Sequence record: OR844650
Strand: one strand, 5' to 3'
DNA length: 64,000 nt
DNA from: Escherichia phage ECO103 4-12-1
Each line of letters starts with the position of its first letter. Position 1 is the stretch's first letter. Below are positions 62,329-62,865 of the stretch, one piece after another. Both the position numbers and the translations under genes were made by a program. The notes below the pieces were generated by a model. That model saw only the letters and a list, made by a program, of their open reading frames with translations, was not told where the DNA came from and made no database searches.

Positions 62329-62358
62329 ATTATATCACATGTTTTTCTACCATTTCAA
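62329..62358 (-). promoter_or_regulatory. sigma70-type promoter TTGAAA-18-TATAAT
   Basis: rc reads TTGAAAtggtagaaaaacatgtgaTATAAT. Confidence 0.4.
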
Positions 62359-62865
62359 AAATTCGTTAACATCAAGTTCGTACTTCAATGAATCTACCAT
62401 ATGTAGTCCAATCAAAAACAAACAGTATGATGCAACAGAGCTTCCACGACCTAGACCCCAAAAGATCTCATTTTCTTCCATATAATCAACAAGCCATATC
62501 ATACATCTTAGTAGCTTTGTCATATTATAATATTCATATAAATCAAGTTCATACTCAACACGTTTTCGTGCTTCATCGGATGTGCATTTTTGTAAGAAAA
62601 AGTCACGCAGATTTATATTGTCGTATACTGGATCATATCGCCACAGTTCATGATTTTTATCATGCTCAATTGTATAATCCAGCATACGTTGTTCTAAGCC
62701 AAATTTTTTACAGTTATCATTGAATTTCAACCTTTCAGGTTCATCAATTTCCTGCAATTGTAAGTACTGGATATCTGCACCGCAATTGATTGCATAAACA
62801 ACTGCGTTAAGATTACATTTCACATCACCATTGGGACTTATAAATCTGTTTCCTTGTACTTTCAT
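62347..62865 (-). CDS. hypothetical protein with DnaE (Pol III alpha)-like GxGRGS segment
   Basis: C-terminal IFWGLGRGSSVASYCLFLIGLHMVDSLKYELDVNEFL. Confidence 0.5.
   Translation of the reverse strand: MKVQGNRFISPNGDVKCNLNAVVYAINCGADIQYLQLQEIDEPERLKFNDNCKKFGLEQRMLDYTIEHDKNHELWRYDPVYDNINLRDFFLQKCTSDEARKRVEYELDLYEYYNMTKLLRCMIWLVDYMEENEIFWGLGRGSSVASYCLFLIGLHMVDSLKYELDVNEFLKW

Follow-up and report, generated by a model that had tools for sequence, protein, structure and literature searches.

A stand-alone 172-residue protein of a Rak2-like jumbo phage is probably the N-terminal half of a split, minimal DNA polymerase III alpha-like enzyme

Why does a jumbo phage encode a small protein that resembles DnaE, the alpha subunit of bacterial DNA polymerase III (Pol III alpha), around the nucleotide-binding motif and then simply stops? 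The question is raised by an open reading frame (ORF) in a stretch of 64,000 nucleotides (nt) of Escherichia phage ECO103 4-12-1 (sequence record OR844650), the whole of which is referred to here as the window. The ORF has an ATG start, encodes 172 amino acids (aa) followed by a stop codon, and ends in ...IFWGLGRGSSVASYCLFLIGLHMVDSLKYELDVNEFLKW. A preliminary description made from the sequence had recorded a stand-alone 172-aa ORF with a DnaE-like GxGRGS C-terminus, which the PF07733 match and the alignment with E. coli DnaE described below bear out, and had suggested either a decayed fragment of a captured polymerase gene or a mini-protein that mimics this polymerase surface. We consider it probable that the ORF encodes the N-terminal subunit (N unit) of a two-gene minimal C-family (Pol III alpha/DnaE-like) nucleotidyltransferase found in Rak2-like and related T4-type jumbo phages, the other subunit (C unit) being the product of a distant gene. 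The window is 99.8% identical to vB_Eco_slurp01, 99% to PBECO4 and 95% to 121Q, which are Rak2-like jumbo myoviruses of ~350 kb (Asteriusvirus), and the N-unit protein is 100% identical in all three. The features of the gene are as follows.

62347..62865, minus strand: N-unit gene, the nucleoside triphosphate (NTP)-binding half of the probable split minimal Pol III alpha-like enzyme (ORF list; PHROG 11127; PF07733)
62353..62592, minus strand: Pol III alpha palm-like segment, N-unit residues 92-171, corresponding to E. coli DnaE ~313-392
62437..62451, minus strand: GRGSS (G139-S143), the G-S nucleotide-binding motif of a Pol-beta-like nucleotidyltransferase palm, invariant in 59 aligned family members

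The relationship to DnaE is supported by searches in both directions. The Pfam profile PF07733 (DNA_pol3_alpha) matches residues 92-171 of the N unit (E=1.9e-9; 37.9 bits against a curated gathering cut-off of 23.9 bits), a significant similarity that spans only positions 16-95 of the 260 in the profile, and PHROG 11127 covers the protein over its full length (E=3e-87). Conversely, when full-length bacterial DnaE was compared with the 145 ORFs of the window (phmmer --max), the N-unit ORF was the sole match (E=9.5e-11). A profile of the N-unit family aligns residues 99-171 with E. coli DnaE 320-392, including the GRGS motif, and G137, G139, R140, G141, S142 and S143 fall on the E. coli GPGRGS segment. 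The palm-like segment ends in EFLK, equivalent to ERFL392 of E. coli DnaE, and the stop codon corresponds to residues ~392-394, ~8 residues ahead of D401/D403; the ORF therefore terminates before the catalytic triad (E. coli D401, D403 and D555), which is not in this polypeptide. Against the PDB, the family profile matched only Pol III alpha chains, at a marginal E=0.015. As the PDB sequence matches, from single sequences and profiles alike, were marginal for both subunits (0.015 for the N unit, 0.29 for the C unit) although all were to Pol III alpha, a firm assignment to DnaE needed fold comparison, in which the predicted structures of the two units matched C-family polymerases only and the palm had the three-dimensional fold of that family. 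Neither unit gave a Pfam match to PHP, thumb, complete fingers, clamp-binding or OB domains. The palm segment of the N unit is also matched by PHROG families 13169, 7513 and 11165 (DNA polymerase or unknown function), the match lying towards the C-terminal end in two of the profiles (461-463 aa) and at positions 37-111 in the third (782 aa); these matches suggest further truncated, PHP-less or differently split forms of DnaE in phages.

Is the short protein then what is left of a larger one? A decaying remnant, that is a pseudogene fragment of a captured bacterial dnaE, would be in keeping with an N unit that covers only ~7-15% of full DnaE, lacks the catalytic aspartates and stops abruptly, and the genome paper of phage CBB noted its 172-aa orthologue as a 'truncated' Pol III alpha (PMC5259590). 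The evolutionary record of the gene contradicts such decay. Orthologues at 77-100% identity (tblastn) occur in jumbo phages of Escherichia, Klebsiella, Salmonella, Cronobacter, Pectobacterium, Erwinia, Serratia, Yersinia and Xanthomonas, and in each of six phage genera the gene is exactly 172 codons long, so that the relatives hold the same short gene at this locus where an intact polymerase had been thought worth looking for. Nonsynonymous divergence (dN) is 0.06-0.19 with synonymous sites saturated, giving omega values of ~0.02-0.11 (Nei-Gojobori), and mean amino-acid identity is the highest among six adjacent genes, at 0.79 for the N unit, 0.77 for the clamp loader and 0.52-0.68 for the others. 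In a collection of 5.8 billion proteins, nearly all of the best 120 of 176 homologues are 170-187 aa long and carry PF07733 alone; the overall range among these 120 is ~95-187 aa, and the few that are shorter seem to be partial. Among 1.84 billion representatives, clustered at 50% identity, an exhaustive HMMER search returned at least 476 clusters at E<=1e-30; each of the best 150 is a stand-alone protein of 152-196 aa at whose C-terminus the profile ends.

The same holds for individual residues. Across an alignment of 59 members, extending down to ~32% identity, the invariant columns are R102, E106, L119, G137, G139-R140-G141-S142-S143-V144, S146, L149, L151, H155 and F169, so that the active-site motif is among them, and nearly all members end 0-3 residues past EFLK/R, a few having longer tails. 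With fixed length, strong purifying selection, a large stand-alone family with a common end point and an invariant motif all standing against it, a decaying remnant is very improbable. One record behaves differently: in MH494197.1 (Escherichia phage CMSTMSU) the match covers 81% of the query at 69% identity and lies at two places, which may point to a frameshift or a sequencing error, or to duplication or disruption of the gene.

If the N unit is a functional protein without catalytic aspartates, where is the remainder of the active site? The window holds no second DnaE-like ORF, as judged by Pfam and PHROG scans of its ten largest other ORFs and by the phmmer --max comparison with all 145. 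The observation in the preliminary description that the flanking ORFs do not continue a polymerase thus stands for the window; it does not hold for the genome, in which the polymerase continues in a separate gene ~30 kb away. In PBECO4 the C unit is gp488 (YP_009150802.1), a protein of 212 aa annotated 'DNA polymerase' (PHROG 11778), encoded at 270767-271405 on the same strand as the N unit, ~30.3 kb from it and hence ~29 kb past the end of the window. The product starts MQDSTDSKHYRKARTDIDIDF and contains HNSGVHF, LGYQKVDIL, MIRPGK and FKKPHAYAYS; its BLASTP similarity to bacterial DnaE reaches E=2e-5. Among 52 aligned family members the residues D16, D18, D20, H48, G51, K80, D82, R149, P150, K152, H190 and Y194 are invariant, and they are collinear with E. 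coli D401/D403/D405, H511/G514, K553/D555, R639/P640 and H760/Y764. The aspartate triad missing from the N unit is thereby located in the C unit (D16/D18 and D82), which also keeps the RPG and KxHxxxY motifs. An AlphaFold2 model of the C unit (pLDDT, the predicted local distance difference test score, of 93.1) contains four strands, including those of DIDIDF and KVDIL. Its profile similarity being weak, the assignment of the C unit rests on the collinear motifs together with the predicted fold.

Taken together, the two polypeptides resemble bacterial DnaE/PolC in having a Pol-beta-like palm with a GS motif, the DxD and third aspartate, the counterparts of K553 and H511, the RPG and KSHxxAY motifs and a matching fold. 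They differ in architecture: bacterial Pol III alpha is a single chain of ~1160 aa, whereas the phage enzyme comprises two polypeptides totalling 384 aa and has no PHP domain. Motif spacing in the C unit indicates the loss of ~78 residues of the thumb, of ~80 residues within the fingers and of everything past ~E. coli 785, where the remainder of the fingers, the OB region and the regions that bind the clamp and tau are located.

Several observations link the two halves. By tblastn the C unit was detected in 94 phage records and the N unit in 93, the latter count having been made with a divergent N unit that does not cross-match full-length DnaE, and the counts per genus are equal with the exception of one fragmentary Klebsiella record. 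The two genes are always separate, at distances of 14.7-182 kb: Rak2-like phages have them 30-34 kb apart, PA5oct 44 kb, Stenotrophomonas phage CM1 15 kb and Atu_ph07 182 kb. In three divergent environmental lineages the N unit has no C unit nearer than 10 kb. Neither the 120 listed homologues of each unit nor the best 150 of the 476 strong N-unit clusters include a fused N+C (Rosetta-stone) protein. The break point is constant: N units stop after EFLK/R, C units begin 0-15 residues before DIDIDF, several of them with M(x)DIDIDF, and the pair is collinear with DnaE, the sole exception being a linker of ~8 residues. In Pol-beta-like nucleotidyltransferase palms the DxD-bearing strand is paired with the one that precedes the G-S motif; in the model of the N unit the latter strand, IFWGL in IFWGLGRGS, is left unpaired. 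One record was considered as an unsplit intermediate and rejected, MT836517.1 ('Bacteriophage sp.', human faeces), which encodes an ordinary 1156-aa bacterial DnaE and served as a reference sequence only. It is a 9.9-kb record in which the full-length DnaE lies beside ORFs that by appearance resemble bacterial housekeeping genes, and is apparently a bacterial contig that was deposited as a phage sequence.

These observations bear on whether the N unit might have a function independent of the C unit, such as binding partners of host Pol III (beta clamp, tau or epsilon), or the phage replisome, as a decoy or with dominant-negative effect. It is a small protein whose gene adjoins that of the clamp loader in a deeply conserved synteny, and the contact between the two units is itself a deduction. 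The matched region is, however, the interior of the palm (E. coli 320-392), and the palm interior of Pol III alpha is not the part that binds the clamp, tau or epsilon. The invariant residues are those of the nucleotide-binding GRGSS motif and of the core around it, not an interaction surface as the proposed surface mimicry would have it, and the protein occurs almost one-to-one with a C unit that begins where it stops and supplies the missing catalytic strands. We therefore regard a mini-protein acting on its own as improbable.

A second question is how two halves separated in this way would be joined. DnaE is the classic example of a gene split by an intein, and in PBECO4 both genes lie on the same strand, which would be compatible with covalent joining, either at the RNA level or by split-intein trans-splicing as for cyanobacterial dnaE-n/dnaE-c. 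Intein halves would not fit into these proteins: most N units end within 0-3 residues of EFLK/R and a few up to about a dozen more, C units start 0-15 residues before DIDIDF, and the collinearity with DnaE is interrupted only by the ~8-residue linker. No intein fragments were found at the break, the N-unit ends and C-unit starts leaving no extra sequence, and the genes are 15-182 kb apart with many genes between them. Covalent joining is accordingly extremely improbable. The cyanobacterial split dnaE is similar in that a C-family catalytic subunit is derived from two distant genes; in that system the split lies in the fingers and is repaired by protein trans-splicing, whereas the phage break lies in the palm and carries no intein sequence, and assembly would have to be non-covalent. 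The split family B polymerase of T4-like phages (gp43A/gp43B) offers a second comparison, as a phage replicative-type polymerase in two polypeptides that need reassembly. It belongs to another polymerase family, its split genes are adjacent, and it arose by mobile-element insertion; the N and C genes differ in lying tens of kilobases apart, with a split that is conserved across a very deep family.

In the split enzyme proposed here, the helical portion of the palm and its first beta-strand (IFWGL) would come from the N unit, along with the GRGSS motif and the helix after it; the GRGS motif is predicted to hold the triphosphate of the incoming nucleotide. The C unit (~212 aa) would contribute the remaining palm strands, including those with the DxD motif and the third aspartate, and trimmed fingers. 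The gene break falls inside the catalytic domain, between the helix after the GS motif and the DxD strand. Since a break at this position would leave neither half able to form an active site alone, the most economical reading is that the N and C units form an obligate non-covalent heterodimer sharing one palm. Every catalytic and nucleotide-binding residue is invariant, which argues that the enzyme is catalytically active. What was observed here is the homology of the halves, the break position, active-site conservation, purifying selection, co-occurrence and genomic context; from these we infer physical assembly, catalytic activity and a biological role.

How does this agree with what has been described for such phages? 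A split enzyme of this kind is already known as a computational prediction. According to Iyer, Anantharaman, Krishnan, Burroughs & Aravind (Viruses 2021; PMC7824862), group 2.2 jumbo phages have a split minimal Pol III alpha composed of an N-terminal NTP-binding unit and a separate C-terminal Mg2+/template-binding unit, beside a family B polymerase, and Atu_ph07 is named as a group 2.2 phage. We detected both units in Atu_ph07 by tblastn, from which it follows that the N-unit ORF would be a member of the published family, an identity that rests on the paper's description and on the phage group. The likeness extends to a stand-alone NTP-binding-only protein of ~170 aa, a distant C-unit gene and a T4-type jumbo phage with a family B polymerase, and we found no difference in kind from the system as described. 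In many GenBank records the N-unit gene is annotated as DNA polymerase III alpha. The present analysis adds the exact break point, the mapping to E. coli residues, selection statistics, confirmation of the fold of both halves, the size of the family and the synteny of the halves.

What would such an enzyme do? Having neither PHP and thumb nor clamp-binding and OB modules, it would be expected to show low intrinsic processivity and to play an auxiliary part. We suggest that the split enzyme most likely works next to the family B replicase, as an auxiliary DNA polymerase of low processivity engaged in replication or repair, a proposal drawn from its sequence and predicted domain content. If the halves reconstitute activity, they would represent a natural C-family polymerase core of ~44 kDa that is split inside its catalytic domain; this would help to define the minimal needs of Pol III-type catalysis and inform the debate as to whether ancestral polymerases looked like such minimal forms. 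The split enzyme is also relevant to the question of why T4-type jumbo phages retain a second polymerase in addition to a family B replicase.

Several points weigh against a split DNA polymerase. Lacking a thumb, a clamp-binding element and full fingers, the enzyme may fail to grip a primer-template in the normal way. The phage already has a complete family B polymerase (gp512 in PBECO4; CBB_263, a gp43 homologue, in phage CBB, PMC5259590), which leaves the need for a second one unexplained. In profile searches the C unit resembles Pol III alpha only weakly, with E=0.29 against Pol III alpha in the PDB and E=0.045, below the cut-off, for the Pfam fingers domain. In the literature searched, we found no experimental work on the assembly, activity or phenotype of the split enzyme.

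The missing thumb, most of the fingers and all clamp/OB modules, together with the resident family B replicase, also agree with a heterodimer that forms and is a thumb-less nucleotidyltransferase with another product, such as untemplated tails, primers made or extended, or a nucleotide-derived signal or modification. Pol-beta-like palms support many chemistries. Against this, the C-family-specific fingers motifs RPG and KxHxxxY are invariant, beyond the generic nucleotidyltransferase residues, and both genes lie in replication/recombination modules; we hold such a non-polymerase function to be unlikely. Also unlikely, in our estimate, is the related proposal that the heterodimer is the smallest C-family palm enzyme known (384 aa, with neither thumb nor PHP) and, not being a conventional templated replicase, serves the T4-type replisome through some other nucleotidyl transfer (handing off or extending primers, adding nucleotides without a template, or repair/modification), possibly with the syntenic DnaQ-like exonuclease. 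For the auxiliary polymerase preferred here, the neighbourhoods of the two genes provide further context, and the neighbours of the N unit in the window are the following.

62825..63136, minus strand: upstream 103-aa ORF of unknown function (PHROG 15348; ORF list)
60301..61290, minus strand: clamp-loader large subunit (T4 gp44/RFC-like; synteny and profile matches)

Both halves sit in replication modules with deeply conserved synteny. In six genera the gene order is structural protein, 103-aa ORF, N unit, small ORF, GroES-like gene, small ORF and clamp loader, and the clamp loader remains downstream of the N unit even in relatives that are only 35-45% identical, so that the reported proximity to a clamp-loader gene is a conserved arrangement. 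The last 41 nt of the 103-aa ORF (62825-62865) overlap the start of the N unit. Since this overlap is annotated alike in GAP32, RaK2, fHe-Yen9-04, PHA46 and Turkey5, which represent five other genera, the two genes are probably co-transcribed and translationally coupled, to judge from their arrangement; in environmental relatives they do not overlap. The clamp-loader ORF as listed has a TTG start and 329 aa, longer than its orthologues (annotated at 316-319 aa), and the real start is therefore probably the ATG 12 codons downstream (MTTLW...).

The C unit is flanked on one side by a block of UvsX/RecA, DnaQ-like exonuclease and UvsW-like helicase and on the opposite side by a primase and a DnaB-like helicase, a synteny kept in PBECO4 and in relatives that are 44-50% identical. 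The exonuclease, PBECO4 gp495 ('DNA polymerase exonuclease subunit'), is a stand-alone protein of the DnaQ/RNase_T type encoded a few genes from the C unit, at 34742-35560 of the PBECO4 stretch examined and outside the window, and its synteny with the C unit is kept in at least one distant relative. As a proofreading partner of the minimal polymerase, which itself has no PHP/exonuclease domain, gp495 is a plausible candidate, if a speculative one.

Some further elements of the window were recorded. A sigma-70-like site at 62358..62329 (minus strand), with TTGAAA and TATAAT separated by 18 nt and an upstream TG (11/12 positions), straddles the stop codon of the N unit, and its -10 element is overlapped by a 10-bp inverted repeat (TGTGATATAA at 62306-62315 and TTATATCACA at 62330-62339, with a 14-nt loop). 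The site and the repeat (62284-62358) may serve the 114-aa gene downstream as a promoter/operator. Elsewhere in the window are genes for a sigma-70-family factor (18823-19788), a C-5 cytosine DNA methyltransferase (43771-44631) and a TelA-like protein (55074-56210), and several ORFs of 270-500 aa that match 'virion structural protein' PHROGs are mixed among the replication genes.
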